Positions 2,847-41,659 are shown, numbered from the stretch's first letter. The stretch: DNA of 64,000 nt from Candidatus Woesearchaeota archaeon (GCA_046704725.1 JBJKRI010000008.1:6191-70190), one strand, 5' to 3'. The notes: a model not told the origin generated them from the sequence alone. Made by a program: numbers and translations.

Positions 2847-2852
2847 TTTATA
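2847..2852 (+). promoter_or_regulatory. Archaeal TATA box; equivalent boxes at 4980-4985 and 7096-7103 precede the next paralogues
   Basis: TTTATA/TTTTTATT located 22-24 nt upstream of each start codon, consistent with leaderless transcripts. Confidence 0.6.
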
Positions 2853-2873
2853 CTCCTATTCTTGAAGGGCGTC

Positions 2874-4967: not shown

Positions 4968-5008
4968 TCCTTAGAAACGTTTATATGGTTTGTTTCTAGG
5001 GTGGATTC

Positions 5009-7090: not shown

Positions 7091-7126
7091 ATACGTTTTT
7101 ATTGTGTTTTCCGTAGATGCGTCTCG

Positions 7127-24400: not shown

Positions 24401-27400
24401 CGAACGGGACGACGGTGACAGTCTCCGCGAACATCACCGACAGCGACGGCATCGACACCGCGTCGGCGGAGCTCTATTATCCGAACGGCACGCTCTGGCA
24501 GAACCTCACGCTCTCCAATACGAGCGATATCTGGTCCAACACCTTCAACTCGCTGAACACCACGTATGGGAGCTACACCGTCACCATCTGGGCGAACGAC
24601 ACATACAACGCCGTCAACGGATCAGAAGGAACGACTTTCTTGACATACGTGAATCTGAGCAATCCAGCCATCATCATCGTGGACGGGTCCACGACGGATT
24701 GGCAGAACCTCTCGTTCGTCACGGACGCGACCCTTGTCGGGAATGGCTATGACATCAAGAACGTGAGCATCGCGCACAGCGCATCCTCCATCTACGCCGT
24801 CGTGAACACCGCCGCGACGCTGGCAGGGCAGTATTACATCTTGCTTGGAACGAACGGGACGGGAGCGTCCACGACGCCGACAGGAGAGACCGCTCCGTTC
24901 CCCATCAGCTACTACGTGCAAGCGAACAGCACAGGCTGTTCAGTGCGTGACCAGAGCGGCACATCGGTGGGCGGCTGCACGCGATCGATCAGCGGCGACA
25001 CGCTCGAGGTCGGCTTCGCACGCAGCCTGGTGGGTGCGAGCCTCAACACCACCATCAACGTCAGCGTGGAATCCGCGAACAGCAGCAGCCAGGATTACGC
25101 TCCTGACCTTCCGAGCTACATTGCATACACGCTCGAATATCCAGTGCTGGACGACGCGACCCTGAACGCAACAGGAACGAATTTCACGACCAGCTCCAAC
25201 CTAACTGCCTATGGAGTCAACGTGTCCGGAGCGACGACCACCATATTCGACTGGCGGAACAGGGGCAGCAGCCTCGCATCATTGTACTTCCCGTTCGACA
25301 CGAACGTGACGAGCAATAGCTCCGGCGCGATAAAGGACTATAGCAACCACGGCAATAACGGATGGCTGGGCGGAGGCACCGCCGGCGATGTCCCGCAATG
25401 GACCTCGAGCGGCGCGAGCGGAGGAGCCTACGTCTTCAACGGAATCAATGACTATATCACCACAACCGCGCAAACGAGCGGTCCCAACGTGTTCAGCCTC
25501 TCGCTCTGGTTCAAGACGAGCCACGCGGGCGGAAAGCTCATCGGCTTCGAGAACACCCAGACAGGCCTCGGGACCTCGTACGACCGTCATATCTACATGG
25601 GCGATACCGGAGTGCTGTATTTCGGGGTCTATCCCGGGAGCGCACAGCTCGTGAACACCACGGCGACCTACGCGGACGGGAACTGGCACTATGTGGTCGC
25701 GCAGATGAACGGCAGCGGCATGTTCTTGTACGTGGACGGGGTGCTCAAAGCCTCCCGATCGGACATCACCTCCGGTCAGAGCTATAGCGGCTATTGGAAG
25801 ATCGGCGGCGGGGCCCTGAACGGCTGGACCTATAAGCCTTCAGACCTGTTCTTCAACGGGACCATAGACGACGTCTCGGTGTATGCACGCGATCTGAGCG
25901 CGCAGCAGGTCGCCGCCCAGTACAATTCCGGCGCGCCACGTCACAACCTTACGGTCAGCCAAGAGCTCACTCCGAACGATCGATGGACCGTGGCCGTGAC
26001 GCCCAACAACGGGGTGCGCGACGGGCCCACAGCGTACACGAACATGCTGCAAGAGTCGGGGCAGACCGTCTGCATCAACGAGACCGGCTACTGCTTCACC
26101 ACGATTCAAGCGGCCGTAGACAACGCGACCGCCGGACAAACGGTCGTCATCACGGACAGCGCCACGTACGACGAGAATGTCACGGTCGGAAAGGATCTCA
26201 CCATCACGAGCAACGGGACGGGGTACCCACTCGTCTACTTCGCGAACGGGACTGCGATCGACGCGGGAACAAACAACGTCACGCTCAAGCGCCTCCACAT
26301 CCGAGTGAACGGGACGGCGAGCGGCATCGAAGCGGTGAAGATGGACTACGGGACCATCCGGAACGTCAAGTTCGACGGGAACATGGGGGCGAACAGCTAC
26401 GGCATCTATTGCGGCGCCCACGACGGGCTCATCAGCCTGACGGACGTGAACTTCACACCCTCGAACGTGACGAGCGCCATGGGCAAGTACTGCAGCTGGA
26501 TCCTGAACCGCGTCACCGTGAACGGCACGGTCACCGCGGACGCGATAGAGAAGAGCCAGGCGTACGATGCGAGCGTGCGGATCAAGAACTCCTACCTCAA
26601 CGCGACGCAGTACGCGGTCTACGGCAAGCCCACCAATTCCAGTATTAGCAACTCTACCTTGTACGCCAGCCAGTACAACGCCGCGGTCCTCGGGGTCAAT
26701 GCGTCCATCACGGAAAGCACCATAGAGTCCTTCGCGAGCACCGCGCTGTATGTGGGCAATAGCAGCAGCATCACGTTCTCCACGATCACCGGCGGTGGCG
26801 GGCATGCATCGATAAACACGAATGGCGAGAGCCATTGGGGCATCACGGTCTCCGACAGCAACCTAACCTATGTGGAGTACAACGACTTCACCTATGCCTA
26901 CAACCAGAACTTCACGTTCATCAACACGACGCTCAGCTCGAGCGGCACCCCCACCGTGCTGATGACCTGCACCGGAGGCGAGTGCTACGCCTATTTCGCG
27001 AACCACTACTCCCTGCACGTCAATGACACAAGCGGCAATGATATCTCGGGGGCGACAGTGACCATACACGACAGCACCGGCAGGCTCATCGGCAGATGGA
27101 CGACGGACGCGAACGGGAACATCCCGAACCAGAACCTCACCGACGCCCTCAAGAAGAACCTCTACGGGACGGCATCTACGGTGTCGTACTCCCCGTACGA
27201 TGTCTACGTGTACAAGAGCGGCTATGCGTCGAGCGAGACGTCCGTGGACATGTCGAGCAACCAGCAGGACACCGTGACCCTCACGCATCAGCTCAGCTGC
27301 ACGATGGTCGCATCGACGTCATGCACGAACGGCACCAAGTACCTGGGCGTGATGAACACGAGCGGCGGCTACGACAATGCGCACGCGCAATTATATCCGG

Positions 27401-30342
27401 ACGGCTGGTGGAACACTAGCTGGGCCTACCGGGAGGAGATCACGTTCGACAACAGCGCGAGCAGCACCAACCTCACGGACTTCCCCGTCATGGTCGTGCT
27501 CAATAGCAGCGACATCAACTACGCGCACGTCGCCACCGGCGGAACGGACCTCCGCTTCGTGGACGGTGACGGATATACGAGCATCCCGTACCAGATCGAG
27601 AAGTGGAACGCGAGCGGGAACAGCTATGTCTGGGTCAAAGTGCCGCAGATAGACGCCGGGAGCACGACGGACCACATCTGGATGTACTACGGGAACTCGA
27701 CAGTCAGTGACGCCCAGAACGCCTCCGCGGTCTGGTCCGACAGCTACGTCGGCGTCTGGCACCTGTCCTCGAACAGCTCGGCGAACGACTCGACGAGCTA
27801 CGGCAACAACGGCGCCGTGATCGGGAGCCCGACGAATACGACGGGAGAGATGGACGGCGCGCTCCACTTCGACGGGAGCGGACAGTACATCGACATCCCC
27901 AACGCGTCATCGCTCAACTTCGTGAACGCGTCGAACTACACCATCGGCGCGTGGGTCTATCCCGAGTGGACGGAGACCGCGAACCCCGACGCGATCGTCC
28001 AGCAACTGGACGGGACGGGCAGCGGACGCACCCACCTGTTCATCGACTTGTCGAACACCTACTGCACGACAGGAGCGACGAAGCAGTACATGACGTATGT
28101 GGGGAACACCGCGACGTGCAGCAACGTCTCGGCCGTGAACAACAGCTGGGCGTACGTGGCAGAGACCGTCGTCGAGAACGGGACGAACGATGTCGTGCGC
28201 TTCTACGTGAACGGCACGCTCGAGAAGACCACGAACGTGAACAGCGAGAGCAACCTCAACGGCTCGTGGCGCATCGGTAGGCACCGCACCTACACGACCT
28301 GGGACTTCGAAGGAAAGATCGACGAGGTCCGGATGTCCGACGTCCGCAGGAGCGGCGACTACATCAAGGCCGAGTATCTCGCCGGAACAGGACAGTTCGC
28401 GACGGTGGGATCGGAACAAGTGCCGTCGGACGGCATCACCTACAACAACAGCCTGTGCTGCTCTACGGACCAGAACGGCACGCTCGGCACGAGCTGCTCG
28501 AGCGGGGACCAGTTCCTCTCGCTCTATTCGACGGACAACTCCCACGTGCAGGAGACGAGCGTCGGCACATACACCGTGCCCGTCTGCATGAGCTTCTCGG
28601 CGGGTACGGTGAGCTGCAGCTACCAGACCGGCTCGTGCTCGCAGAATAGCAACTGCGTCCTTTCCATGGCCTCGGCGGACAACAGCCACATCGGCGCGTG
28701 CGGAGAATACAACATCAACGTGTGCTGCACCCTGCCGCCGACACTCACGAGCCTCTTGCTGAACGCTACCTCGACGCGGAACTGGACGACAGACGACTTC
28801 AACCTCTGGCCGCAGGGAGCGCAGGGGTACAGGACGATCATCTACGACTGGTATCTCAACGGCACGCCGTTCGCAATGCTCGACCTGTCGTTCGACACGA
28901 ATGTGAGCGTCGCGACGACCGGTGCGATCAAGGACTACAGCGGTAACGGCCACAACGCGACGCTCGGCGGAGGGACCGTGGCCCGGATGCCCACCTGGAA
29001 TGCGAGCGGCGCATCAGGAGGGGCATATCATTTCACGAACGGGACGTACATCGATGTGGGCGCCGTGGGCAACTACTCCCGCACCATCGTCTTCTGGCTC
29101 CACCCGGACACCGCAATCACCGCGACCTCTCCCACACGGCAACTGATCGAGCTCGGAAAACACGTCGCTGACGACTTGGGAGTCCTCATGGGAAGCTCGA
29201 CGAGCGCGCTCTCGAACGAGATTATCGAGGTGCGCAGCAGCGCAGGAAAGAGCGGTTGGTGCTCGAGCTCCGGCAGTATCTCGGCGGCCTGGCACCAGTT
29301 CGTCGCGGTGTGGAACGGTACGCGGTACGAGATATACGTGGATGGTGTGCGCAAGGACAATTGCTACCAGGGCACGTCGAGCATCATCAACGCGACCGAC
29401 GTCTGGGTCGGGAACTGGCAAAGCGCGCTGAGCAGCGCCTCTAGCGGATTCAACGGTTCCATCGATGACGTACAACTGTTCAACCGATCACTGTCCGCAT
29501 CGCAGATACAGAGCATGTACCACAGCGGCACACCATACATGCAGACGATGAAGAGCACCGAGCTCAGCGTGAACGACACGTGGTACGCGACAGGGACGCC
29601 GAACAATGGCTTCACTGACGGTCCGACGGTGACGAGCAACAGCATCACCATCGTTAACAACGCGCCGAACACGCCGACGTTGATGGAACCCGGGAACAAC
29701 ACGACAGTAACCACTGCGACACCGTACTTCAACTGGACCAACAGCACTGACCCCAACGGTGATGCGGTCCACTACGAGATCAATATCACAGCCCCATCGG
29801 GCTGCGCAGCGCTTCCCGTGCGCAACGTCACGCCGAGTGAATACACGAGCGTGGACACATTGTGCACGGACAAGTCCTACTACTGGTCGGTGCGGGCCTG
29901 CGACAACCTCCAGTACTGTAGCCCGTGGACGCCGGAATGGAACTTCACGGTGACGAGCGTGGTGAGCATCGACTTTGTCACCAACAACACGGACTTCGGA
30001 CAGATGGCGCCATCCACTGCTAGCGTCAACAATACTAACAGCACGCTCGACAACAGTCCCCTGCCGCTTGAGGTCAACAACACTGGGACGGTCGCGGTGA
30101 ACCTCACCATCAAGGCGCTCGGAGCGCTCTGGACGAACGAAGGCCTCAACACGACTTACTTCGAGTACGCGGACGAGAACAGCAGCGACTGGCAGAACGT
30201 CACGCTCAACTACACGAACCTGACGACGAACCTGAGCGTCGCGCACACGCGGCAGATCGAGATTAACATCACGGTCCCCGTGAACGAGCCGAACGGCGCG
30301 AAGCAGAGCACCCTAGAGGTGCTCGCAGGAGCGGCGCAATGA
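9406..30342 (+). CDS. Giant (6,978 aa) surface adhesin: Ig-like domains, 4 LamG/ConA domains, beta-propeller, repeated right-handed beta-helix (NosD/CASH-like) units, DUF2341-like domain, Cys-rich NxH repeats, FN3, C-terminal pilin/WxL-like domain
   Basis: Single uninterrupted 20.9-kb ORF with an N-terminal hydrophobic anchor (start at 9406 or 9418; TTTAAA at ~9384). AFDGxNMWV propeller blades, F.G.IDDV.(L/V)(F/Y)(N/A)R.LSA.QI LamG ends, WWNTSWAYREEITF...DLRF DUF2341 pattern, and very dense N-x-S/T sequons. Confidence 0.85.
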   Translation: MRSGMGERRLLLGGAVGLLFAVVILVLLSGFHCTAGTHTCTFSGMQQATPQERSALSHRLHLPVSSYTIDPLTNASTATLTDGGNTVTLEDIPAGAEPYVHFSHNDPAVRSEVINGVRAHRQAATISLRANGPIQSIGQCENFDEELEKCDGVWKATTIPFTQKGDVISFHVDGFSAYAGLSKQGPSYVGAQSASPVVTLISPTDGLNTTDGNTTFESNVTDDYYVENATLYTNKTGTWSPHETRWNGEIPYNDSGLLVLLHLNNESFVGENSTHVYDWSGNGNNGTVDGNTALNASGEFGNAYTFYGGGADHIAMPDGMLDSLSKGTVSFWFHPGGTSHSYQDIFGTHGSSGGAIELAYMPGSGQTIWENGGTGGCTGTPISQSWSISNPNKWHMYTFAVNGSGTKIYLDGSLVYSNASLTCFYSNFSQSATTYYSLGCGATTTPTCYSPEVYEGSLDEFSIWNRRLNSSQIAALYNYTKTSLSPAFQNVSLTPGNYSWNVRAEDNDTNIAWAANRTLKIRAPPTYTPGVTLLSPAGRNFTLDRTLTFTANAQSNSTLRYAQLYVWNSTGGTAVNGNIWAGSDSAGGLGKTYPDGTEVNYTAVAAADGDGVAFDGTYIWSTQEENGDVSRTALNGSTTMYPTILYADHHMLAVGSGTVWATNPTHDAVTKIYPNGSTVNYTVPGQPGDIASDGTDMWVTFPANDSVAKITPSGTVTMYNGTGSEPFAIAFDGTNMWVACYGDQIITKVAPNGTMTNYSGSGYKNTNGDLPGAMAFDGTNMWTANGLGHSVTRIAPNGSMTNYSLGTRRAQGIAFDGANMWVADDGSSTVTRILPNGSYTDFPTTLHPETVTFDGAPLAPLYHYNLLSGNTENTSFNYTFTKGGTYTWNVKMCDQNGICEWGTNRTIAVDPLKTIAFVQEAGNTLYASSNLSSQTFTSDVTPGDTIIAIVSWDPSGGGSQSLNITDDQGDTFQQASASPQVNQSAFSQTATLFYALNATGGPTNVTATFGAQRYFRSLTILEYANVSTTNAEDDSVSTAKTTGVVNPGTLNPTQEGDVVVAMGVAGNNTFTHREGFTLRRHDSTDELDVIDSIHNTSSPIQSYWTTPNSSYAAIAGAFKAQSFTSIATQTCAPEWFQSLRVTGVLTCENTTISATSLDITSGGRLILRNATLITGQSTIDGSLTVHNSKNSVWQNSNLTINGNYTLDNSTLHLNVSTSGAFGITVNTSGHLILANNSNITNGGGSASSYIVVNGTLTATDSVLEHLGTNSIAGITGNGTYSFERANISGSMDANGKLNFLDSTLNTTLNTAMKLESGSDGSVINNSNVQGAITVLSLLTSNTNITNSRFYGLVGWNTGSNPNIKFDHNNLTVTGNGGMRSYSGSGRTMTNVRIDVIAGNTGVRTGFQTDDLENFTIVGEGNGVGPGTMTGANWTNFVVNMTGTNDPVNFGGCTGCTLKNWTVIGNASGHALITGTGVTDTRLDDLKLEMHAANMVGLNVTDTENVTIENGSITSNSTGATGINFVEQSTNHSSYTLVNTTFLSLDQSGCSAATNCTATVEWFARANVTDNQGADVYGASVNITNVTGSLVSSTTTDMSGLSPYEAVIAYTLHNGVESTQNNHTVSASKSGYSGSTSVNVTGTTTANLTITQPETVCVNETGVCWTTIQGAIDNATSGQTVVITDNRTYNENLSTSVPLTITSNGTEMPMISDQDATAIQGNNLTIDRVRINVTGSAANIYGIQGSNNTVRNTVLYVNTSGSGVAAISGPSGLIDINHTNITLAGTVNGVVVGSYGKNGSLRIDHTRITGSTVYFLGLYFQDDVDLRNTFINGTGRGVRRSTNGNTLMRNMTILTNGNAISAGSNSGPLTVWNSLLNASGGNDAAWVSNSTNIYNSILDGGLSIKTYGKNAGQGIRVVNSTLYSGVIIEPGSDGTIFNFTIVNSSTASIGIMNHNWTVGSAVTMQKYLQVHINDTAGISLSGASISVADIYGNTRGTYSTGPTGWIAEQNITYKTYTSNGTAINNVTYDNHTITASKPGYFSNSTSVNMSSNQDVNLTLYPQSCGTLTSSLTLGRNLSVNGSTCLTITQPGITLDCNGYGIIGNQASGTYGILVQGVTGVTLKDCNVSYFDYGIYLNNTNSSLIQNVSEYNSNHDGLELNDANNNTVIGGHFVENSAATGSNRIYLTGNSRNNVIANVTPYAHTNGNLLRVDSGSSANAFENATLNSGYAGLQFNEPNISFDNASTYKSGPIYWYSKGNFKTANRCPASFGNKTAGILYMSGCNGAQIQNVTFNASCDIYGLWIDSMANATITNINVSDSCFGLARNIQLNSAQNTTMANVADSGGSLYIGSGTSSSYFKNLSLNSISLTSSNNVFNNITLSGNGANQNVYISSGYSASAVFANSTFSQQYAPLQLGRSYDNITLTNVSLNKSKFGSYSNTGITYAGWYLTTFVEDTHGFPIPGFTVTAKNSSGGVVGTGVTGSNGRAMIPLTQYTWNDSNITYAGNYSISVSKTNFTTETQSVNMTNNTQLNFTYTGHVCVNETGVCFGTVQPAIDNATAGQTVVITDNGTYAETVNISKNLTLASNGTGLPTILGDDVSAVNFEGPATAILVRRLNISLEGSAANIHAIDVNTNQALNLTDVDIWLNVTRSGAYAIRHGGTPANSYFDHLNITAVNATWMFGGWDSGTGGIFINNSRFVGHSGIAVSAYVIGGMYNTYANVTSYGFGTHLAPHANITNVTIYSLSGSLALGDYDTVIDAYLSASSGSALALGNWTYARNLTLVAPGHHAIYSVTGYMPVVADTNVVSGDLYINSYQTNHTPQNITLVNTSITPSLVVADFCDANEICAGYLQNYLHVHVNTSEPVTKHIGIDNQSSTIFSLKNSSTVSISTRDANDVIVVLAAAENASALGSTTPNVSSISDTANLTWLRRSNVTVSNVDGEVWYAIAPNVLNNDSINVTFNISGTVDDASLLVIAVANASTTSPWDSDTSLPAINTSTTVSIPNVSGVSTSNANDMLLGFHFSGGASGSAVSHQYAGSGFTLINDSTNYNGYNSVAASAENKTVNTTQSNISVSFGNTSASGTRWIMVADALRQAPAASSISGAAVTVTDNAGTVTQTNTTDSNGDIQRQNVTYYYGGQVLGTTVRDYYDNHTITASKAGYFSNSTRVNMSSNQYVNLTLRPQACGPMTTSLTLDANLSANGSTCLTITQPGVTLDCNGYSIIGNETANTYGVLAQNVSGVTVKNCQFHNWGEAIYANYTNDSYFTNDSVGENIGSFPTYYENGVYFYASHGNVLSGGNFTYSGSQSYYSRIILTGNSTNNTVANTTLYTTSGRRTVNIGSNSEQNRFENVSLEGNDEYNIGNTNNSFDNASTHDGAPILYYSKGNFEPANQCPATLHDTYAGLLFMDGCDNVQVNNITINGTAEYVGVELRNLNNGTFTNINETGMAYLTASGFYLSSGVTNSTFKNITMNKGAFSFDYSDNNLVQGLTSSVLGYTAAQGNIVTNGTFSSTNWIVYATSTPTENIVANSTFNPAAQPLYVNSNYGNYTFTNVSLNKSQFGTYTRTGITYVGWYMIAQVNDTHGYPIPGFTVTAKNSTGGTVGVGKTNAAGQAWIPLTQYSWNNSVISYQGNYSVSVSKSAFSTQTQSVNMTSNKQLNFTFQGHVCVNETGVCFGSIQAAINNATAGQTVVITDNGTYNENITIPASLTLTSNGTGWPTIDVTGATAIQLGTGSYVNISKLNVNDSGSASAISAIRSQRFGRVHLTDLNIYVNLTGSGATGGIVESSNTGSFSTSIISKVNISGAAAAGFDTENTGGGSHRGNISDVRVDGDFTYGIYSAYNNNLTLNRVSVNITGSGNGLFKASSRINNSNITVTSGHGIYLDFGVVNNTRVTTTTGTAIQAPQSNDNITVLNSIINSSSVGILLGAYWNGATYVQYLAVNNTQFFANPAIQFWEDGHGNISQYATITNSTQNGSGLQTEDIAIAGLGSSVPYVHASLQNPLDATVDNGSSSPIGGATVSATNLLGSHVFSKSTSVSGTISTQDVPYLLVVYNSSRTNTTLTNHTITASKPGYFSNSTSVNMSANRNVVLTLSQQSCGQMTTDLTLNNSLSIDGATCLTITQPGVTLDCNGYNITGNDTGGTSGVLVQGVNDVTIKNCNVTGFYNSVYLNNSNQSTVQNVTTNSYSYYGVFFNASHENTIRNSSLAGGASQPSARVYLAGNSTNNTFANDSMSATDGMKWAWINSGSKWNSFENDTFTGSSGYFNINEQNNSFDNKSTVNGGYLYYFTDGNFNPANVCPPAFMNMNAGFVYMYGCSNVLIRNITLNSSPTYRGLWILNEQNVNISRITVTDPYSFDSPVFSVTGTGGNFTDSDGGVGYLSVSASHMRFDGLNVSEIAAGEVDNDRFNQFRISGGTNAIIALYSNFTLTNSTIAQNMKTVVPSYGGYGEINLTNVSLNQSQFGSYNKPGITNVGWYLIAQVNDTHGYPISGFTVTAKNSTGGTVGTATTGTNGQAWIPLTQYTWNNSNIAYKGNYTIYATKSGFDNGSATVNMTNNTQLNFTFKGHVCVNETGYCFGTIQNAINNATAGQTVVITDNGTYTESFTIAKDLTLTSNGTGVPTISSHDATLAHLGAYGGSYITLRRLNLSIDGSASGLRVISFDNTPVVNLTDVSIWVNDSANDASALYINGAMGGGSYFNNLNVTYASGGNMWSGYGTAGTIYINHSRWIGPVGHVWGAVQIASMENTFMNVTTGSAWGFANGFKTGANLTNLTLYGKNDVIQLGDYNTLTDSYINATSGHGLYPKNHDYIQNVTADGTSYGIDAYQGANQTVIADSRIYNGLLIDSYGSNQPPTNITFVNTTLPPSQIRTNLCGANEICAAYLQNYLQVQVSESGGSGIQGATVSVTDNASRTVATATTNASGDIQKQNITYYYGGLVLGTTENNYYDNHTITVSKPGYYSNSTTVNMSSNQNLVITLSVNRPPVVKQLSVTPNPAANGTTVTVSANITDSDGIDTASAELYYPNGTLWQNLTLSNTSDIWSNTFNSLNTTYGSYTVTIWANDTYNAVNGSEGTTFLTYVNLSNPAIIIVDGSTTDWQNLSFVTDATLVGNGYDIKNVSIAHSASSIYAVVNTAATLAGQYYILLGTNGTGASTTPTGETAPFPISYYVQANSTGCSVRDQSGTSVGGCTRSISGDTLEVGFARSLVGASLNTTINVSVESANSSSQDYAPDLPSYIAYTLEYPVLDDATLNATGTNFTTSSNLTAYGVNVSGATTTIFDWRNRGSSLASLYFPFDTNVTSNSSGAIKDYSNHGNNGWLGGGTAGDVPQWTSSGASGGAYVFNGINDYITTTAQTSGPNVFSLSLWFKTSHAGGKLIGFENTQTGLGTSYDRHIYMGDTGVLYFGVYPGSAQLVNTTATYADGNWHYVVAQMNGSGMFLYVDGVLKASRSDITSGQSYSGYWKIGGGALNGWTYKPSDLFFNGTIDDVSVYARDLSAQQVAAQYNSGAPRHNLTVSQELTPNDRWTVAVTPNNGVRDGPTAYTNMLQESGQTVCINETGYCFTTIQAAVDNATAGQTVVITDSATYDENVTVGKDLTITSNGTGYPLVYFANGTAIDAGTNNVTLKRLHIRVNGTASGIEAVKMDYGTIRNVKFDGNMGANSYGIYCGAHDGLISLTDVNFTPSNVTSAMGKYCSWILNRVTVNGTVTADAIEKSQAYDASVRIKNSYLNATQYAVYGKPTNSSISNSTLYASQYNAAVLGVNASITESTIESFASTALYVGNSSSITFSTITGGGGHASINTNGESHWGITVSDSNLTYVEYNDFTYAYNQNFTFINTTLSSSGTPTVLMTCTGGECYAYFANHYSLHVNDTSGNDISGATVTIHDSTGRLIGRWTTDANGNIPNQNLTDALKKNLYGTASTVSYSPYDVYVYKSGYASSETSVDMSSNQQDTVTLTHQLSCTMVASTSCTNGTKYLGVMNTSGGYDNAHAQLYPDGWWNTSWAYREEITFDNSASSTNLTDFPVMVVLNSSDINYAHVATGGTDLRFVDGDGYTSIPYQIEKWNASGNSYVWVKVPQIDAGSTTDHIWMYYGNSTVSDAQNASAVWSDSYVGVWHLSSNSSANDSTSYGNNGAVIGSPTNTTGEMDGALHFDGSGQYIDIPNASSLNFVNASNYTIGAWVYPEWTETANPDAIVQQLDGTGSGRTHLFIDLSNTYCTTGATKQYMTYVGNTATCSNVSAVNNSWAYVAETVVENGTNDVVRFYVNGTLEKTTNVNSESNLNGSWRIGRHRTYTTWDFEGKIDEVRMSDVRRSGDYIKAEYLAGTGQFATVGSEQVPSDGITYNNSLCCSTDQNGTLGTSCSSGDQFLSLYSTDNSHVQETSVGTYTVPVCMSFSAGTVSCSYQTGSCSQNSNCVLSMASADNSHIGACGEYNINVCCTLPPTLTSLLLNATSTRNWTTDDFNLWPQGAQGYRTIIYDWYLNGTPFAMLDLSFDTNVSVATTGAIKDYSGNGHNATLGGGTVARMPTWNASGASGGAYHFTNGTYIDVGAVGNYSRTIVFWLHPDTAITATSPTRQLIELGKHVADDLGVLMGSSTSALSNEIIEVRSSAGKSGWCSSSGSISAAWHQFVAVWNGTRYEIYVDGVRKDNCYQGTSSIINATDVWVGNWQSALSSASSGFNGSIDDVQLFNRSLSASQIQSMYHSGTPYMQTMKSTELSVNDTWYATGTPNNGFTDGPTVTSNSITIVNNAPNTPTLMEPGNNTTVTTATPYFNWTNSTDPNGDAVHYEINITAPSGCAALPVRNVTPSEYTSVDTLCTDKSYYWSVRACDNLQYCSPWTPEWNFTVTSVVSIDFVTNNTDFGQMAPSTASVNNTNSTLDNSPLPLEVNNTGTVAVNLTIKALGALWTNEGLNTTYFEYADENSSDWQNVTLNYTNLTTNLSVAHTRQIEINITVPVNEPNGAKQSTLEVLAGAAQ
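14368..26170 (+). repeat. Internal repeat framework of the giant gene: five VC(V/I)NETG.C...Q.A(I/V).NAT.GQTVVITD blocks at 14368, 17020, 20404, 23110, 26068; NHTIT.SK.GY blocks at 15490, 18862, 21601, 24256
   Basis: Read from translation and DNA. 44 nt are identical between 20452..20495 and 23158..23201. Confidence 0.85.
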
Positions 30343-31478
30343 GACTCTCCATCACGCTCTTGGTGCTGCTGTTTGCTGTTCCCGCCGTGACGGCGTTCGG
30401 CATCAGCCCCGCGACATATAGCATGCTGGGCACGGGAACGAGCAACTATACCCTACGCATCCTCAATCCGCAGCACGAGAGCATGCAACTGCAGATTATC
30501 GGCGTCGGCCAGGCGGCGCAGTTCCTGCACCCATCCAAGAAGTACGTCAATCTGGCCTCCTCAATCACGGAGATCGACGTGCCCGTCTCGCTCGTGGTGC
30601 CCGCATCCCAGTTGCCGGGCGAGTACTCCGGCGCGCTCATTGTCGAACAACTGCCATCGAGCGTCCAAGGCAAAGGATTCGTGAGCGCCGTTGCTGCGGT
30701 GCAGCAACGTGTCAATGTGCGTGTGCCTGCGGACGGGAAGTTCGTGGATGCGCACATCCTGACGTCCGTGGGTTCGACGCAGGGAACGCAGGTCGTGACA
30801 GTCGCGGTGCAGAACATCGGCACGGAGAACATCTCACACCTTACTTCGCACACGGATATCCGCGACCCATCCAACCAGCTCGTGGCGAGCATGAGCACGA
30901 AACAGGTCTCCTTGGCTGTGGGTGCGGACAAGAGCCTTTCCGGGCAATGGCATCCGCGCCTTCCGGGGACCTATACGGTGACCGCGACGGTCACCTACGA
31001 CAATCGGTCGTACACGACGAACAGGACTATCCAGGTCGGCACGCTCGACGTGCGCGTCGGCACGCCGGTCTTCGGGAACTTCTCTTTGGGCAGTCCGGTA
31101 CGCATCGACACGCCGCTCACCAGCGAATGGAACCAGCGATTGTCCAGCGTGACAGGGACGATTGTCATGGACGGTCCGGGAGGGTACCACACATCGTTTC
31201 CCACGCTCTCGACGGACCTGCCGCCCGACGGCGACGGCACGCTCATCGGCTACTGGAACGGCGCGGGGGCTCCTGCGGGGCAATACAACATGACGTTGCA
31301 GGTGCATTTCGCCGACCAGACGCGCAACGAGACATACCGTGTGGGCGTGGGCGTGGACTGGATACGGATCGAGCAGGGAGGGCAGGCGTCTTTTGCGACT
31401 ATCCTCTTGGCGCTCGCGGCGTTGCTCGTTCTCGTGGCTGCTTACTTCGCGCAAAGGTATATAAGGCGGCGTCCATGA
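30339..31478 (+). CDS. Secreted multi-Ig protein with C-terminal TM, DUF916/PapD-chaperone-like
   Basis: ATGA overlap with the giant gene stop. Signal peptide then FGISP...LRILNP, LPGEYSG..., and a C-terminal hydrophobic helix followed by RRRP. Paralogue of 32875..34014. Confidence 0.6.
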   Translation: MRLSITLLVLLFAVPAVTAFGISPATYSMLGTGTSNYTLRILNPQHESMQLQIIGVGQAAQFLHPSKKYVNLASSITEIDVPVSLVVPASQLPGEYSGALIVEQLPSSVQGKGFVSAVAAVQQRVNVRVPADGKFVDAHILTSVGSTQGTQVVTVAVQNIGTENISHLTSHTDIRDPSNQLVASMSTKQVSLAVGADKSLSGQWHPRLPGTYTVTATVTYDNRSYTTNRTIQVGTLDVRVGTPVFGNFSLGSPVRIDTPLTSEWNQRLSSVTGTIVMDGPGGYHTSFPTLSTDLPPDGDGTLIGYWNGAGAPAGQYNMTLQVHFADQTRNETYRVGVGVDWIRIEQGGQASFATILLALAALLVLVAAYFAQRYIRRRP

Positions 31479-31497
31479 AACCGGACGGGGCTATCTC

Positions 31498-31875
31498 ATG
31501 CCGGAACGAAAGAAGACTATCCATCTGGTGATATTGTATGTCATCGTCATCGCGCTCGCGGTGTACGTGCTGTCAGGACAGAACGCTGCGCATCAGGCGG
31601 TCCCGACGAATTCGAGCAATATGTCGTGGGTCTGTCTCAAGCAGGAGTGCGCCTCCTCGGTGCCTGGCGGGACCGTGTGGGCACAGCAGAACTGCGGTCT
31701 CGTCAATACGACGAACGGCTCTGTCGAGGCGTGCAGGGTGACCATCAACGGCCAGACGCAGCTCGTGCGAAAAGACGCGCTGAATCTTTCGGTCATCCGG
31801 CAGTGCACGGAGTACCGCTGCCTCGAGGACGTGCAGGTCCGGCACGTCAACTACACGCTTCCAGGCGCGCAATAG
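31498..31875 (+). CDS. Small membrane-anchored Cys-rich hypothetical protein
   Basis: N-terminal TM followed by six Cys in about 75 aa. Confidence 0.6.
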   Translation: MPERKKTIHLVILYVIVIALAVYVLSGQNAAHQAVPTNSSNMSWVCLKQECASSVPGGTVWAQQNCGLVNTTNGSVEACRVTINGQTQLVRKDALNLSVIRQCTEYRCLEDVQVRHVNYTLPGAQ

Positions 31876-31899
31876 GGCTTCACGCCGGGAACAGATATG

Positions 31900-31907
31900 T
31901 TTAAATA
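31900..31907 (+). promoter_or_regulatory. TATA box (TTTAAATA) for the 31943/32176 gene pair
   Basis: AT-rich box in the intergenic gap upstream of 31943. Confidence 0.5.
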
Positions 31908-31942
31908 GCAGTATAGAGAAAATCACTGGATAAGGATAACTC

Positions 31943-32161
31943 ATGGCAGCGGACATCAGCAATAATGCGGTGGCGGTCCTGCTGGTATTGGTGATTGTCG
32001 TGGCCGCGCTCGGCACTTGGGCGTTCCTCACGGCCTTCCAGCCGGTGTCGCAGGCAGCCCCGCAGGCGAGCAATGCGAACGTCCACTTGAGCATCTACCA
32101 CCAACCCGCTCCAGAGCAATCCAGCAGTCAGGCGTCAGTGGCGCTCAAGATCGCAACATAA
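31943..32161 (+). CDS. 72-aa membrane/secreted peptide with pilin-like N-terminus
   Basis: MAADISNNAVAVLLVLVIVV resembles MAEISNKTLALLVVAALVV of the next gene. Ends in two alternating strands (NANVHLSI, QASVALKI). Confidence 0.6.
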   Translation: MAADISNNAVAVLLVLVIVVAALGTWAFLTAFQPVSQAAPQASNANVHLSIYHQPAPEQSSSQASVALKIAT

Positions 32162-32175
32162 GGAGGTTCAATAGA

Positions 32176-32835
32176 ATGGCAGAAATCTCGAACAAGACCT
32201 TAGCGCTGCTCGTCGTGGCCGCGCTCGTGGTGGTCGTCGTGACCACCAGCATCCAGCTCAACAAGCTCAACACGCTCCAGTTCGGCCCGTCCGGCTTCGC
32301 AACCTCGGGCACCGGGCGCGTCAACCTGACGATCGCCTCGTCCCTGAACATCGAGGTCGACTCCAATAACAACACGATTGACTTCGGCACCTGTACGCCG
32401 GCAGCCACGCTCTCGCCGTGGATCGACAGCAACTCGAGCGTGTCGAACACGACGATTTGCAACGGCACCGCCGCGTCGGGCCGCCAGGGCATCCAGATCA
32501 ACAACATCGGCAACGTGAACGCGAACGTGACCGTCGTCGGCGAGTGTACGCCCGCGGCGCTCCTTCCGGAAGCGTCGGGCACCAGTAACCAGTTCCAGGT
32601 CTGGATCGCGAACTGCACGGGAGGCACCCAGAACCTGAACTCGTACACCTCGCTGTCCACCACGCCGATCATCGCGTGTGGGAACATGACGACGGGAACG
32701 TCCGGCGGCAACGGCAGCTTCTGGATGTACGCGCGCGTCAAGATCGACTCGGACACGCTGCCAGCACAGAGCTGTGGCGCGGTGCCGCACGACTCCGACC
32801 AGCTCACGTTCAGCGCGACATCGAACGTCGGCTAG
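32176..32835 (+). CDS. Secreted pilin/WxL-like beta-sandwich subunit (219 aa)
   Basis: ATG 32176 follows a strong AGGAGG SD (the ORF track start 32017 is too long). N-terminal TM, SGFAT motif, VNLTI...IDFG...INNIGNVNANVTV...QLTFSA pattern shared with the giant protein C-terminus. Confidence 0.65.
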   Translation: MAEISNKTLALLVVAALVVVVVTTSIQLNKLNTLQFGPSGFATSGTGRVNLTIASSLNIEVDSNNNTIDFGTCTPAATLSPWIDSNSSVSNTTICNGTAASGRQGIQINNIGNVNANVTVVGECTPAALLPEASGTSNQFQVWIANCTGGTQNLNSYTSLSTTPIIACGNMTTGTSGGNGSFWMYARVKIDSDTLPAQSCGAVPHDSDQLTFSATSNVG

Positions 32836-32844
32836 GCCGATATC

Positions 32845-32870
32845 TTTTTATTCTCTTTTCCGGGTTTTTT
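32845..32870 (+). terminator. T-rich tract (possible terminator; TTTTTATT may also be the TATA box of 32875)
   Basis: TTTTTATTCTCTTTTCCGGGTTTTTT directly after the TAG at 32833-32835 and 23 nt before the next ATG. Confidence 0.4.
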
Positions 32871-32874
32871 CCCT

Positions 32875-34014
32875 ATGCGGATAGCCCTCTTGCTTCTCTG
32901 CGCCCTGATGGCGCTCCCACTCGTCCATGCTATCGGCATCACGCCGCCGAGCGCGCATATCGATTTCACACCCAACCAACAGGGATCCTTCGATGTCCTG
33001 GTGATGAATTCTCGGCCGTTCAGCATCACCGCAGGAGTCAACATCACCGGGGACTTGGCTCGCTACTTCAACGCCACAGGACCGAAGATCGGTGCCCGCG
33101 GGAGCGCGACGTCGACGATCACATATAGTCTGCCGGCCGATATCGATCCCGGCCTGCATCGGCAGTTCATCTATTACACGGAGGACTTCTTCGACCCGAA
33201 CGCCGGCTCGTTCGCCGCCCGCACGAGCGTCGGACTGACTGTGGACGTCTGGAAGCCCTATCCTGGCAAGTACGCGAAGCTCACGCTCGAACCACGCAAC
33301 GTCCCGAAGGGACAGAAGACCGACGTGCATGTCACGATCGACAGCAAGGGGGACCAAGCCGTCACAGGAGATGTGAATCTCCGTATCCTGGACGCGTCGG
33401 GAGCGCTCATCGACTCGTACGTGGTGCCCGGATTCAGCGTCGGGGCGAACACGAACCGCGGACGCTACGTGCAGGTCAACAGCCAGGACTACAAGCCCGG
33501 CAAGTACACCGTGAAGGGCAGCTATGACTACGGGGCGGGCGTCGCCACGGACAGCAAGACGCTCAAGATCGGCGAACGGACGATCATCATCGACAACACG
33601 TCCACCGCCGTCTATCTCGACCAGCCCGTCAACAAGTTCACCGTGACCGTCGAGAGCATGTGGAACCAGCCCCTCGACGATGTGGCGGCCACCTTCGCTC
33701 TGGGGGCGCACACCGGCAAGACGCCGAGCGTCACGCTGCCCGCTTTCGGCTCGCAGCAGCTCGTCGGATACTGGGACACGGACAAGGCGCTCGCGCCCGG
33801 TAACGGCACAGTCCTTGTCACCGCCACCTTCCGGAACGGCACGCCCGTGTCGCGCACGTTCCCCATCACCATCTACAACCAGACGCCGCACCCCCAGAAG
33901 GAAGCGCCCGCGACGATCACCCTCGGACTGACCGACGTGCTGTTTGTCGCCCTGATGGTCCTGCTGCTCCTCGCGTTCGGCGGCTATCTCTGGCACATCC
34001 ACGCACGCTCATGA
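32875..34014 (+). CDS. Secreted multi-Ig protein with C-terminal TM, DUF916/PapD-chaperone-like (paralogue 2)
   Basis: Signal peptide, IGITPP...F.VLVMNS, PGKYTV motif, C-terminal TM. 379 aa, the same length as 30339..31478. Confidence 0.6.
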   Translation: MRIALLLLCALMALPLVHAIGITPPSAHIDFTPNQQGSFDVLVMNSRPFSITAGVNITGDLARYFNATGPKIGARGSATSTITYSLPADIDPGLHRQFIYYTEDFFDPNAGSFAARTSVGLTVDVWKPYPGKYAKLTLEPRNVPKGQKTDVHVTIDSKGDQAVTGDVNLRILDASGALIDSYVVPGFSVGANTNRGRYVQVNSQDYKPGKYTVKGSYDYGAGVATDSKTLKIGERTIIIDNTSTAVYLDQPVNKFTVTVESMWNQPLDDVAATFALGAHTGKTPSVTLPAFGSQQLVGYWDTDKALAPGNGTVLVTATFRNGTPVSRTFPITIYNQTPHPQKEAPATITLGLTDVLFVALMVLLLLAFGGYLWHIHARS

Positions 34015-34418
34015 AGAAGCGCTCTGTCATCATCCTGGCCATCGTCATCTTCCTCGTGACAGCATCGATCGTCTCGCTCGTGTACCAGTACGAGCAGGGA
34101 TACTTATTCTCGCACGTGCAGGAGATGCCGTACCTCTTCTACGTCAACCAGACGCCTGGCATAGACGTCCGGCACGACATCCTTCGCATGGGGCAGATCG
34201 CGTGGGGCGCCCGCACCACGCGTGAGGTGACCATCAGCGATCCAGGGGCGCACACAGTGCTCATCCGCGTCTTCGGCAAGGGGGCTGGCATCCTTTACGC
34301 CGATCCCTCGGAGCTCAACCTGACGAATGGCACGGCGAACGTCACCTTCATCGCCGAGGCCGCTCCAGACACTCCTTATGGACGCTATGACGGCGTGGTC
34401 CGCTTCTACTTCCATTGA
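34011..34418 (+). CDS. Small membrane-anchored beta-sandwich protein
   Basis: ATGA overlap with the upstream gene. N-terminal TM, LRMGQI..G...R.V.I and P..PYG.Y.G.V pattern. Confidence 0.6.
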   Translation: MKKRSVIILAIVIFLVTASIVSLVYQYEQGYLFSHVQEMPYLFYVNQTPGIDVRHDILRMGQIAWGARTTREVTISDPGAHTVLIRVFGKGAGILYADPSELNLTNGTANVTFIAEAAPDTPYGRYDGVVRFYFH

Positions 34419-34488: not shown

Positions 34489-34962
34489 GTGGAGCTGGGA
34501 GCGCTGCTGCGCCATCCGGGAGTGCGGGACGTCATCGAGACGGACAAGGCACTGTTCATCCTCACGGACGCGCCGAAGACGCTCCCGCCGATATATAGCG
34601 ACAGAGAGGTCGTGGCGCTTAGACCGGAGGAAGCCCTCGCGAGCGAACGGCTGCCGGAGCTGCTTTCTGGCATAAGCCATAAGAAGGGACGCCTCGCAGA
34701 ACGGTCCGGAATGCGCGGTTGGGAGCTCTACGAATTCGATCTTTCCGGATTGCCTGCGAGCGGAAAGCAATCCTTCGCCCACGCACTATACGGCACCGGC
34801 GGACGGGCGAGCGAGCTCGGACGCCTTGGCGGGCAGCGGCTCGGGCGCAGCGCGGTATTGGTCCCGCGCGGCAATGCCAGGACATTCGAGGAATGGCTCT
34901 CACACAAAGGGGCGCGATGGACGCGGAAGAGCGTCCTCGTGGAGGAGAAGGATGCGGCTTGA
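34489..34962 (+). CDS. Hypothetical protein (possible degenerate nucleotidyltransferase plus ferredoxin-like C-terminal domain)
   Basis: GTG start. C-terminal FDLSGL...K.SFAHALYG...LGG..LG..AVLVP...FEEWL pattern; the family assignment is from recollection and is weak. Confidence 0.45.
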   Translation: MELGALLRHPGVRDVIETDKALFILTDAPKTLPPIYSDREVVALRPEEALASERLPELLSGISHKKGRLAERSGMRGWELYEFDLSGLPASGKQSFAHALYGTGGRASELGRLGGQRLGRSAVLVPRGNARTFEEWLSHKGARWTRKSVLVEEKDAA

Positions 34963-37114
34963 TGACAGGACCGTCAAGGTCCTCTGGGTGGCGTTCATCA
35001 TCCTCGCGGCGGTCATCATGCTGCAGAACCTCATCATCCTGTTCGCCGTGCCGCCGCCCACAGCGACGCCGGCGGGCACCGCGACCGCGCGGGTCAACCT
35101 CTGCGTGGACAATCCCCCGCACTGGCTCAACCCAGTCTCGTGCGCTGACGCGCACGCGCTGCAGGCATACAGCTGCGACGTGAGCGCGATCGACAACGAC
35201 ACCGGACAGGTGATCGTCGGGTACAACGCGACGCTCATCAATGGGCCGAGCGCCGGCGCCCCCTTGTTCGAGAACATCTCGCGCAACGGAACGCTAAGCT
35301 TCAACGCGACGACCGGCCAGGTCGGCAACTACACGGTGTCCCTCGAGGCGACGGACAACGCAACGTGTCCCTTGTCGGGAAACACCACCTTCAATCTGAC
35401 CATCCTTCCCGGGACGGGGCCGCCGATCCTCATCAAACCAATACCCAATAGCACGTGGCAGAAGAACACCATCCTCATCCCGTACAACCTCAACGACTAT
35501 TTCGTGGATCCGGAAGGGGGGACGTTGCTGTTCAGGGCGGCGGGAAACACCAATATCAAGATATCCATCGCGGCCGACGGGACGGTGACCCTCCAGCCAG
35601 CGAACGGCTACTGCGGGCAGGAGATCGTCTTGTACACCGCGACGAACTCCGTAGGCTCGACGAACAGCAACTTCGTCACGCTCAACGTGACCTGCCCGCA
35701 GCAGAGCAGCAGCAGCGGAGGGAGCACCTCTTCCGGAGGCGGCGGTGGAGGCGGCGGATACGCCTTGCCGCAGGCCACCTGCTCGCAGAGCTACTACTGC
35801 TACCCCTGGGACACGTGCCAGTACACCAAGGCCGTGAGCGCGACGGGAGACAACTACACCGTGAACATCACCGGTGTGCAGGGAAGCCAAATCTACACCG
35901 TGGAGGGGCCGTTGCCGGTCAACACGAGCCTCTACTACACGGGCTACCAGTCACGCAAGTGCATCGATACCAACGAGTGCAAGCCCGGATACAATGTCTA
36001 TGTGCGCAACTGCAGCTACAAGCCGAGCTGCCATGACCATATCCAGAACCAGGACGAGACGGGTGTGGACTGCGGCGGCGTGTGCGGACCCTGCAACACC
36101 TGCACCGACGGAATCCAGGACGGCCAGGAGACTGGCGTTGATTGCGGCGGACCGTCGTGCAAGCCGTGCTACTCGTGCACGGACGGCAAGATGGATGGGA
36201 AAGAGCTCGGCGTGGACTGCGGCGGCCCGGACTGCCCCGCGTGCGCGACGTGCTTCGACGGCATACAGAACCAGGGAGAGACTGGCGTTGATTGCGGCGG
36301 GCCGTGCACGCCGTGCGCGCAGATGCAGACGCCGAAGGGGCAGAACGGCCTGACGCCCCTACAGGTCGCCTTGCTGTCGGCCATCGCGCTCTTGCTGCTC
36401 ATCATCGGAGCCACCGTGCTCTTGCGACGCGCGCTGCAGGCGTGGCTGTCCGCGCTCGCGCTGCGCTACAAGAAGCGCAACAGGGTCACGCTCATCGACG
36501 CGGATACCCGCGAATCCCTGCTCTCGGAGCTCGCGGCGCTCGAGCGGACCATCGACGGGCGCGAACCCCTGCCGCGGCAGGCAGCGATCGGCGGACTGTT
36601 ACGCAAATACCTGCACGCCGCGCTCGGTGTCGAGACCGAGGCAGATAGTCAGGTGGTGGACGCCGCACTGACCACGCAGCATGTCAGAGAGGACCTGCGG
36701 AGCATCCTCGCGTCGCTGTATAGGCGCGTGTTCCAGACGGAGTTCACGGACGCTGCGCTCCCGCTCACGTTCCTGCACGCGCTGTTGCATGAGATGCGGT
36801 TCATCGTCTATGAGACTGGCGTGACCACTCTGAGCGACGCGAAACGGATGCGGGACCAGGCAGCGTCTCTCCCGGCCGCGCCAGAGCGCGTCTCCTCCGA
36901 GGATGACATCTATTCCGCGCTCGGGCTTGGCGTCGAACGTCTCCGCTTCCGGCAGTTCCTGCTCTCCGAGCGGCTCTACGCGCAGATCGAAGCGGCGTAC
37001 GGGGCTGCGGGCGAGGCCTCGAAGCGCCGCGTGTATCCTGATGCGGTGCGCTTCAACCGCGAGATGGCCTTCGCGTCGCGGCAGAGCAAGCGTCTGATAG
37101 AACGGCTTCAATAA
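34952..37114 (+). CDS. Type I membrane protein: cadherin/He_PIG-like domains, S/G linker, four ETGVDCGG Cys repeats, TM, helical cytoplasmic tail (720 aa)
   Basis: ATG 34952 follows a GGAGG SD (the ORF track start 34826 is too long). DNDTG/DPEGG cadherin-like motifs and C.DG.Q...E.GVDCGG..C..C x4 at 36029-36316. Confidence 0.75.
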   Translation: MRLDDRTVKVLWVAFIILAAVIMLQNLIILFAVPPPTATPAGTATARVNLCVDNPPHWLNPVSCADAHALQAYSCDVSAIDNDTGQVIVGYNATLINGPSAGAPLFENISRNGTLSFNATTGQVGNYTVSLEATDNATCPLSGNTTFNLTILPGTGPPILIKPIPNSTWQKNTILIPYNLNDYFVDPEGGTLLFRAAGNTNIKISIAADGTVTLQPANGYCGQEIVLYTATNSVGSTNSNFVTLNVTCPQQSSSSGGSTSSGGGGGGGGYALPQATCSQSYYCYPWDTCQYTKAVSATGDNYTVNITGVQGSQIYTVEGPLPVNTSLYYTGYQSRKCIDTNECKPGYNVYVRNCSYKPSCHDHIQNQDETGVDCGGVCGPCNTCTDGIQDGQETGVDCGGPSCKPCYSCTDGKMDGKELGVDCGGPDCPACATCFDGIQNQGETGVDCGGPCTPCAQMQTPKGQNGLTPLQVALLSAIALLLLIIGATVLLRRALQAWLSALALRYKKRNRVTLIDADTRESLLSELAALERTIDGREPLPRQAAIGGLLRKYLHAALGVETEADSQVVDAALTTQHVREDLRSILASLYRRVFQTEFTDAALPLTFLHALLHEMRFIVYETGVTTLSDAKRMRDQAASLPAAPERVSSEDDIYSALGLGVERLRFRQFLLSERLYAQIEAAYGAAGEASKRRVYPDAVRFNREMAFASRQSKRLIERLQ

Positions 37115-37117
37115 GAT

Positions 37118-37187
37118 ACATAAGTTATGTTACTTAGCTAAATAATTTGTAGTACGTATATTAGATTAATGTAGTAACGTATATAAA
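37118..37187. promoter_or_regulatory. Very AT-rich promoter with inverted and direct repeats
   Basis: ACATAA-G-TTATGT (37118-37130), GTAGTACGTATAT (37149-37161) and GTAGTAACGTATAT (37171-37184), TATATAAA (37180-37187). Confidence 0.55.
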
Positions 37188-37202
37188 TAACCAATATTGT
37201 GG

Positions 37203-37328
37203 ATGACTGTGGGCCGTCTGCACATAGAGATACCTGAAGAGCTGCACAGGCGACTGAAGCTCCGGGCAGTGAAACAGGACACCTCCCTCAAGGATCTTGT
37301 CGTCGATCTCCTGGAGGAGGCCAAATGA
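37203..37328 (+). CDS. Ribbon-helix-helix (Arc/MetJ/ParG-like) mini-protein 1, 41 aa (not in the ORF track)
   Basis: MTVGRLHIEIPEELHRRLKLRAVKQDTSLKDLVVDLLEEAK: alternating beta-strand, P-x-x-L-H turn and two amphipathic helices. Confidence 0.8.
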   Translation: MTVGRLHIEIPEELHRRLKLRAVKQDTSLKDLVVDLLEEAK

Positions 37329-37444
37329 CTCGCGTCAATATCCCTCTGCCTGACGCGCTGCACAAGCGGCTCCGTATCAAGGCCGCCACAGAAGGGAAGA
37401 CGCTCAAGGAACTGGTCATCGGCATCCTGGAGGAGAGGGCATGA
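37325..37444 (+). CDS. Ribbon-helix-helix mini-protein 2, 39 aa (not in the ORF track)
   Basis: MTRVNIPLPDALHKRLRIKAATEGKTLKELVIGILEERA. ATGA overlaps on both sides, each preceded by GGAGG. Confidence 0.8.
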   Translation: MTRVNIPLPDALHKRLRIKAATEGKTLKELVIGILEERA

Positions 37445-41636: not shown

Positions 41637-41659
41637 CGCTTCCCTCAGCCGCAAAGCAG

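Follow-up and report, generated by a model that had tools for sequence, protein, structure and literature searches.

Gene order and conservation of the cassette

We analyzed a 64,000-nucleotide stretch of DNA, hereafter called the window, from a Candidatus Woesearchaeota genome (GCA_046704725.1, JBJKRI010000008.1:6191-70190; 1.18 Mb in 8 contigs, 99.7% complete), in which a run of plus-strand genes encodes a giant adhesin, a small pilin-like protein, and a group of membrane-anchored partners. An earlier note, made from the sequence alone, had read this region as a candidate assembly system of the fimbrial or WxL-like kind. The adhesin, 6978 aa long, was identified by an open reading frame (ORF) scan and Pfam matches at 9406..30342, and positions 29938..30330 encode its C-terminal attachment module, recognized because it is homologous to the globular domain of a pilin-like protein of 219 aa, here named f219. 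The adhesin gene shares an ATGA overlap (30339-30342) with the following gene, f379A (30339..31478), which is the coupling described in the earlier note. ORF, paralogy, and tree analyses defined the 379-aa product as an adhesin-coupled, WxLIP-like, membrane-anchored protein with several immunoglobulin-like (Ig) domains. The next gene, p125 (31498..31875; ORF and locus comparison), encodes a small Cys-rich protein that is anchored at its N-terminus.

Downstream of p125, a TATA-like box, TTTAAATA, was read directly at 31900..31907, and it lies 36 nt 5' of the ORF for a 72-aa protein, s72 (31943..32161; profile match and synteny). The f219 gene (32176..32835; profile and structural model) starts at the ATG at 32176, and 9 nt 5' of this codon there is an AGGAGG Shine-Dalgarno sequence (32161..32166) that overlaps the s72 stop codon. 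Since the TATA-like box precedes the 72-aa ORF, s72 and f219 form one unit; the box that the earlier note assigned to a unit of f219 alone does exist, but it heads s72, a protein not singled out there. The ribosome-binding sequence and the T-tract reported in the same note were both found, the latter as T5, T4, and T6 runs read directly at 32845..32870 within the 39-nt spacer 3' of f219, and it is possible that they represent a partial archaeal terminator. The second 379-aa gene, f379B (32875..34014; model and Foldseek analysis), encodes the pilin-coupled WxLIP-like protein, and shares one common frame with f219 (32176-34011), the two being separated by one TAG. It is joined by a second ATGA overlap (34011-34014) to the gene for the 135-aa protein p135 (34011..34418; hhalign and locus comparison).

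The conservation of this arrangement was analyzed in four contigs with relatives and in 29 further loci of different genera, which were scanned with hidden Markov models (HMMs) of the five small families. The neighborhood was found to be co-conserved, upholding the grouping of the genes in the earlier note: s72 was directly 5' of the pilin-like gene in 27 of the 29 loci, and the order s72-f219-f379-p135 recurred across about 29 genera. An f379-type gene came after the pilin gene in 20-21 of the 29 loci and a p135-type gene was next in 11, and most of the loci lacking downstream f379 or p135 end at the edge of the fetched stretch. Two tandem pilin genes were present in seven loci. Because the minimal locus, L002, contains only s72, f219, f379B, and p135 between unrelated housekeeping genes, these four genes are regarded as the core. 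Upstream of the core, the window and loci L001 and L006 have a second module composed of adhesin, f379A, and p125, again with stop/start overlaps, and locus L004 carries f379A and p125. Moreover, when genomes with the adhesin module were matched by hand, 30 out of 35 also contained a strong pilin match.

The pilin-like protein, the strand-only protein, and the adhesin module

A word-indexed search with f219 retrieved 13 relatives, and the f219 profile matched 2144 clusters in a search of 1.84 billion representatives; among the 150 matches listed, the proteins were 165-244 aa long, nearly all about 195-245 aa. Within the phylum, the profile matched 159 of 301 genomes, all from the same order or class, usually with 2-5 matches per genome. 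A 48%-identical relative of f379B carries the label Candidatus Woesearchaeota. When f219 and its 138-member alignment were compared with Pfam, NCBIfam, and the sequences of the PDB, no meaningful family was found, and the protein belongs to a large unnamed family that no Pfam or NCBIfam model covers. Single weak matches to DUF4402, StfE, and SCPU were suggestive of fimbrial folds, and stayed below significance.

Residue conservation was counted in the 138-sequence family alignment. The N-terminus of f219 has the consensus M-[DE]-[IV]-S-N-[KR]-[TAS]-L-A...G-G-T, and the helix that it begins is strongly conserved (N6 in 138 of 138 sequences, L9 in 129, S5 in 128, and both A16 and T24 in 126). 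The invariant Asn of [DE]-[IV]-S-N-[KR]-T-L-A sits in an N-x-T sequon on what is expected to be the cytoplasmic side; the region comprises f219 residues 1-24 (32176-32247) and s72 residues 1-30. No known signal type fits this N-terminal sequence, and it may serve specifically for sorting or processing. The 'GGT' at the end of the helix led us to consider a signal of the SipW/TasA type, which no model supports. After the helix, f219 contains T-G-x-A-T at residues 39-43, with G40 conserved in 134 of the 138 sequences and A42 in 106, and then the strand motif G47-x-V-x-L-x-I53, whose first residue is kept in 129. The G-x-A-T sequence could be a signal-peptidase I site, with cleavage before the Thr leaving the strand motif at the mature N-terminus.

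The AlphaFold2 (AF2) model of f219, with a predicted local distance difference test (pLDDT) score of 87, consists of a helix at residues 6-33, a linker, and a beta-sandwich ending in a C-terminal strand at 210-216. In this monomer model, residues 34-58 have no strand pairing, though residues 51-60 are confidently placed. Donor-strand pilins accounted for 10 of the top 23 matches when the model was compared with the PDB by Foldseek, and these included CS20 (1.2e-3) and the archaeal bundling pilus (ABP) structure 7ueg_A (5e-3, probability 0.97), followed by the PapG pilin domain, Csu, FimH, PapH, PapA, CanA, and PapK. The description of f219 as pilin-like was thus borne out by the best structural matches of its predicted fold, albeit with weak scores.

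The 72-aa protein shares the N-terminal part of f219 and has no globular domain. It contains the conserved N-terminal membrane helix followed by two [ST]-G-x-V-x-L-x-[IV] motifs with a Pro-rich turn between them, and it matched positions 1-53 of the f219 family profile (E=3.2e-6). Across the s72 family, the helix is as in f219 and the linker is variable. The anchor is this N-terminal transmembrane helix and not an LPxTG sequence. These features make s72, which belongs to the conserved core, a candidate for anchoring an assembly in the membrane and for donating a strand at its base.

The giant adhesin begins with a hydrophobic signal or anchor, and its Pfam-defined payload includes four Laminin_G_3 domains (ConA-like lectin), a right-handed beta-helix, CarboxypepD_reg, and DUF2341. 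The resemblance between its C-terminus and f219, noticed by eye in the earlier note, was confirmed: BLASTP of the last 200 aa against f219 gave E=9e-5, with 30% identity over 80 aa, in an alignment that takes in the blocks NFTVTSVVSIDF/NLTIASSLNIEV and LEVNNTGTVAVNLTI/IQINNIGNVNANVTV. In agreement, the 138-member f219 profile matched the last ~135 aa of the adhesin with E=1.9e-8 over profile positions 48-203, and a local hmmsearch of the C-terminus gave E=1.3e-11, with STLEVLA aligned to the TITFTA end strand of the family. With a profile built from three such modules, one or two copies of the adhesin module per genome were detected in 70 of 151 genomes of the order, in frames of 170-10022 aa; by comparison of coordinates, the module was found in several genomes a few hundred bases 5' of a DUF3324 match in the next gene. 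The adhesin of locus L006 is not a giant but a 752-aa DUF285 protein, and it ends in the same module. As judged from these sequences, the adhesin combines an invariant attachment module with a variable payload. The module of the giant directly follows an Ig/FN3-like domain, and a weak Ig_Rha78A_N match ends exactly at WNFTV, the segment aligned to the strand motif, suggesting that WNFTV is probably the last strand of the preceding domain. If WNFTV belongs to that domain, the adhesin module would accept a strand and not donate one.

The membrane-anchored multi-Ig proteins and the neighboring genes

The two 379-aa proteins are paralogs, as proposed before, with 25% identity over 318 aa (E=1e-7), and both have a signal peptide followed by G-I-(S/T)-P and a C-terminal transmembrane helix. 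Relatives were taken from the neighbors of pilin genes (31 relatives), and a word-indexed profile search for further ones added nothing. With these relatives, the AF2 model of f379B reached a pLDDT of 93, showing a signal peptide, Ig domains at residues 20-127, 134-233, and 237-334, and a transmembrane helix at 352-378. Foldseek matched this model to the Enterococcus faecium WxLIP over ~255 columns, both in its WxL-bound form (9i25_C, 3.3e-9) and free (9i1y_A, 9e-9). These are matches of a size similar to f379B; many other multi-Ig proteins match and score better, and the TM-scores with WxLIP are low, 0.26-0.38. The f379 family profile was collinear with EfmWxLIP1 over domains 1-2, with a marginal E=0.037, and hhalign found no relation between the pilin and f379 families.

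At the level of Pfam domains, PF11797 (DUF3324, WxLIP_HBD) matched f379A with 19.9 bits and f379B with 13.2 bits, against a cut-off of 28.9, and it matched 6 of the 31 family members, the best one at 3.4e-8. The DUF3324-like region corresponds to the middle domain of f379. When 121 genomes of the order were scanned, PF11797 was detected in 13, in four of them above the Pfam cut-off, and always in frames of 390-440 aa; the match in the genome of the window was f379A. No match of PF06030 (DUF916, WxLIP_PGBD) over the cut-off was found in the 121 genomes, and the weak ones fell in frames of 228-965 aa, none of the size of f379. The earlier description of the 379-aa proteins as chaperone-like therefore stands for the WxLIP-like fold and for the DUF3324 match in some relatives, and does not extend to DUF916, which was not detectable. 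PF06030 also matched the controls Thermotoga maritima, Methanosarcina acetivorans, and Lactococcus lactis, two of the three above the cut-off. WxLIP-type domains may occur outside Bacillota and in other archaea, where the operon-based screen of the October 2026 WxL/Elr preprint would miss them.

In the tree of the f379 family, the upstream, adhesin-coupled proteins, including f379A, formed a clade of 10 (support 97/98) apart from the downstream ones. This separation indicates that the paralogs are old and specialized by partner. The downstream protein p135 has an N-terminal transmembrane helix, a short strand of alternating hydrophobic residues, and one Ig domain; hhalign related it to domain 1 of f379 (probability 96.6%, E=4.8e-10) and to the N-terminal half of f219 (probability 88%). 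In the four loci where p125 was found (the window, L001, L004, and L006), it always came after f379A. It contains eight conserved cysteines, and relatives were not detectable in the family libraries.

Several further genes lie on both sides of the cassette. Directly upstream of the giant adhesin (603-9214, plus strand) there are four tandem genes for proteins of ~700 aa, each with a type I dockerin, which is near the N-terminus in three of the four and at residues 345-385 in the first, and two of them contain polysaccharide-lyase domains; the position of these enzymes 5' of the adhesin suggests display through cohesin and dockerin. On the downstream side, conserved neighbors that are not part of the core occupy 34489..41082 on the plus strand. 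They encode a 157-aa protein, a membrane protein of ~720-762 aa (~34952-37114) that combines Big_9 with several Cys-rich GVDCGG..C repeats and has a long, helical tail on the cytoplasmic side, and, at 37441-41082, a protein of 1213 aa with Big_9/He_PIG repeats and a transmembrane helix at its C-terminus. All three are syntenic in close relatives and absent from the minimal locus L002. From 41744-43659 onward, also on the plus strand, genes for a MoxR AAA+ ATPase and a DUF58 protein follow, with a BatA/VWA gene next in relatives. The MoxR/DUF58 order is kept 3' of the cassette in L001, L003/L004, and L006, and a short minus-strand gene (41055-41654) lies in between. A link between these genes and the surface module is possible, but they may be no more than syntenic.

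Proposed assembly and its alternatives

The cassette probably holds the 6978-residue sugar-binding adhesin on the cell surface. How it would do so is less certain, and we give even weight, for and against, to the proposal that the locus is a Woesearchaeales apparatus for adhesin display organized like the Gram-positive WxL/Elr pilus, in which chaperones guide donor-strand exchange. From the homologies, folds, motifs, and co-conservation of the cassette presented above, we infer polymerization, strand exchange, and the placement of the adhesin at the tip. All the parts would be exported through Sec, and f219 would probably be released by cleavage between A42 and T43 of the G40-x-A42-T43 sequence, leaving the N-terminal strand G-x-V-x-L-x-I. 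The membrane-anchored three-Ig f379 proteins would work as fold-completing chaperones or assembly platforms, f379A serving the adhesin and f379B the pilin. The free strand of the pilin would then insert into the pilin-like C-terminal module of the giant lectin/beta-helix adhesin, and also into further pilin copies, giving a short stalk or fiber with the adhesin at the distal end. The last strand would be donated by s72, which has no acceptor domain and would tie the assembly to the membrane, as ElrB does in bacteria.

The closest known systems are the Elr pilus and the Csc/WxL clusters of Bacilli (PMC10599100). The elrABCDE genes, a WxL cluster of Enterococcus faecalis, build a pilus by chaperone-guided donor-strand exchange, in which the chaperone, ElrE, has the domains DUF916-DUF3324 and a C-terminal transmembrane helix as its tether, and the terminator, ElrB, is strand-only and anchored through LPxTG (bioRxiv 10.64898/2026.10.17.759780, October 2026). 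In that work, the system was defined by Pfam matches at gathering thresholds and found only in Bacillota (10.64898/2026.10.17.759780). The roles of ElrD, ElrA, ElrE, and ElrB each have a putative archaeal counterpart: a small pilin that has a strand at its N-terminus and an Ig-like domain; large adhesins whose payload varies (lectin, beta-helix, or leucine-rich repeat) and whose C-terminal domain is of the pilin type; a multi-Ig chaperone-like partner with a C-terminal transmembrane helix, a fold matching WxLIP, and a middle domain of borderline likeness to DUF3324; and s72, which is tiny, anchored, and strand-only, as a candidate equivalent of ElrB. The archaeal partner differs in having three Ig domains instead of two and in occurring as two specialized paralogs; anchoring relies on an N-terminal transmembrane helix in place of LPxTG and sortase; a highly conserved N-terminal helix is common to the pilin and the anchor; p135 is extra; and the archaeal host has no peptidoglycan. 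What would be new relative to WxL/Elr is that the pilin is of another family, that the partner has three domains and comes as two specialized paralogs, and that a membrane-helix anchor replaces sortase.

A number of observations weigh against the donor-strand arrangement. The Foldseek scores of f219 are weak (E 1e-3 to 0.1, TM-score <=0.49). The N-x-G-N-V motif, a feature of complete Ig domains of the CARDB/ASH type, is also present in the f219 domain, whose fold may therefore not be incomplete. The putative cleavage site is 18 residues past the hydrophobic core, which is unusually distant, and the N-terminal helix is conserved far beyond an ordinary signal peptide, hinting that it is retained or recognized by something else. 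For the adhesin module, the HMM alignment begins at the strand position (profile 47/48), so that an adhesin with no donor strand depends on our assignment of WNFTV to the preceding domain, for which the match is weak. Judged by sequence, the cassette also lacks the WxL domain (PF13731) and DUF916 (PF06030): PF13731 was matched in 0 of the 121 genomes of the order, including that of the window, and was matched in the control Lactococcus lactis. There were no WxL chains in the top 50 Foldseek matches of f219, and no Pfam match to WxL among its 138 relatives. The cassette is then WxL-like in its organization and is not a WxL family member by Pfam criteria, so the WxL-like label of the earlier note holds insofar as the bacterial clusters it cited do build a pilus and the archaeal fold and organization are alike, and fails for PF13731 and PF06030. 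The helix conservation is the basis of the strongest rival, a membrane-anchored docking complex and not a fiber, which we regard as unlikely but deserving of attention. Here, f219, s72, and p135 would keep their N-terminal helices and f379 its C-terminal one, the helices would pack in the membrane, and the Ig domains would form a fixed base that binds the end-module of the adhesin one-to-one. Every core protein does contain a membrane helix, and the one common to f219 and s72 shows extreme conservation and an abundance of small residues (A15, A16, S20, G22, G23, T24); a complete Ig domain in f219 would also be in agreement with such a base. The strand motif and the strand-only s72, however, are hard to fit with a static structure, tandem pilin duplicates are common, the G-x-A site is kept (134 and 106 of 138 sequences), and the T-runs after the pilin gene suggest that more of the subunit than of its partner is made.

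The donor-strand arrangement has also to be compared with chaperone-free polymerization. In the Pyrobaculum ABP locus, a 204-aa pilin, AbpA, is followed by AbpB, which has 410 aa and three beta-rich domains and for which a role in initiating or anchoring the filament has been proposed. The sizes and order of f219 and f379B parallel this pair, as they do TasA/TapA, in which a Sec-exported, beta-rich pilin of ~200 aa also precedes a three-domain protein of ~400 aa, and the match of f219 to 7ueg_A points the same way. A bundling pilus in which f219 self-polymerizes and f379 is an AbpB/TapA-like initiator or anchor nevertheless seems improbable to us, more so than the docking complex. None of the 138 f219 members matched TasA-family Pfam or SipW-type NCBIfam models, f379 matched WxLIP while TapA was absent among the 50 Foldseek matches listed, f379 carries a membrane-anchoring helix at its C-terminus, and there are separate adhesin-coupled and pilin-coupled paralogs; ABP loci, in addition, have no separate adhesin bearing a pilin module. 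The N-terminal helix is better conserved than any other part of f219, as in type IV pilins, and a beta-sandwich comes after it, as in archaeal pilins; the genome also encodes on other contigs a prepilin peptidase and five T2SSE-type ATPase matches, so that f219 and s72 could be type IV pilin-like proteins with the helix as the filament core and the machinery encoded elsewhere. This is very improbable: the N-terminus of f219 has almost no leader and no [KR]-[GA] cleavage motif of a class III signal, TIGR02537 matched 1 of 138 members at E=0.093 and no Pfam pilin model did, no ATPase or platform gene was present in any of about 35 loci, and the adhesin shares only the globular domain with f219. 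Equally little credence is given to the simplest explanation, that these are co-located surface glycoproteins with common Ig-like domains and no joint assembly. Ig-like domains are ubiquitous and many of the similarity scores are marginal, but the genes keep one order in about 29 genera, with start codons that overlap stop codons, the helix and the strand motif are specific and common to f219 and s72, the f379 paralogs are specialized by partner, and the adhesin-module genomes mostly carry a strong pilin match as well.

Other donor-strand systems share part of this organization. The chaperone-usher pili (CS20, Csu, P, and type 1) provide the best structural matches of f219 and have tip adhesins made of a payload and a pilin domain; the archaeal host, unlike theirs, has no periplasm, and the likeness is at the level of the fold only, with weak scores. 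PapD_N was not among the Pfam matches listed for the window proteins, nor among those listed (25 of 53 families) for the 31 f379 relatives, and the usher family was not searched for; one of these relatives matched ASH. The Sulfolobus thread (Saci_0406, with the cap Saci_0405) is Sec-exported, independent of PibD, heavily N-glycosylated, and joined by donor strands, and its accessory cap donates a strand but cannot accept one. Like the Pyrobaculum ABP locus, it is a further archaeal parallel to the cassette. No sequence relation between the two was found, and the threads have neither a WxLIP-like partner nor a giant adhesin.

For DPANN archaea, Woesearchaeota among them, a life in attachment to other cells is assumed, and to our knowledge little has been learned of the means of this attachment. 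We found no paper linking these archaea to such a chaperone/donor-strand pilus system, and the WxL/Elr pilus is, as far as we know, the only chaperone-guided donor-strand pilus described outside Gram-negative bacteria. Roughly half of the phylum's sampled genomes contain the cassette, with adhesins of up to about 10000 residues, which makes it a leading candidate for an attachment device, and the Bacillota-only picture would become wider with an archaeal system whose partner is WxLIP-like and DUF3324-related. The pilin, the chaperone ectodomain, and the 72-aa peptide constitute a small expressible set for direct tests of the mechanism. In its fullest form, the proposal is that a genuine pilus of the donor-strand-exchange kind is built by Woesearchaeales and by sister orders within their class, with a new pilin family primed by WxLIP-like chaperones tethered to the membrane, hypervariable giant lectin adhesins as caps, and a strand-only membrane root; we hold this tentatively, as somewhat doubtful still. 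If it is true, chaperone-guided strand exchange would be common to archaea and Gram-positive bacteria and not confined to Bacillota, and the main organelle of host or surface attachment would have been identified for a large group of uncultured DPANN archaea.

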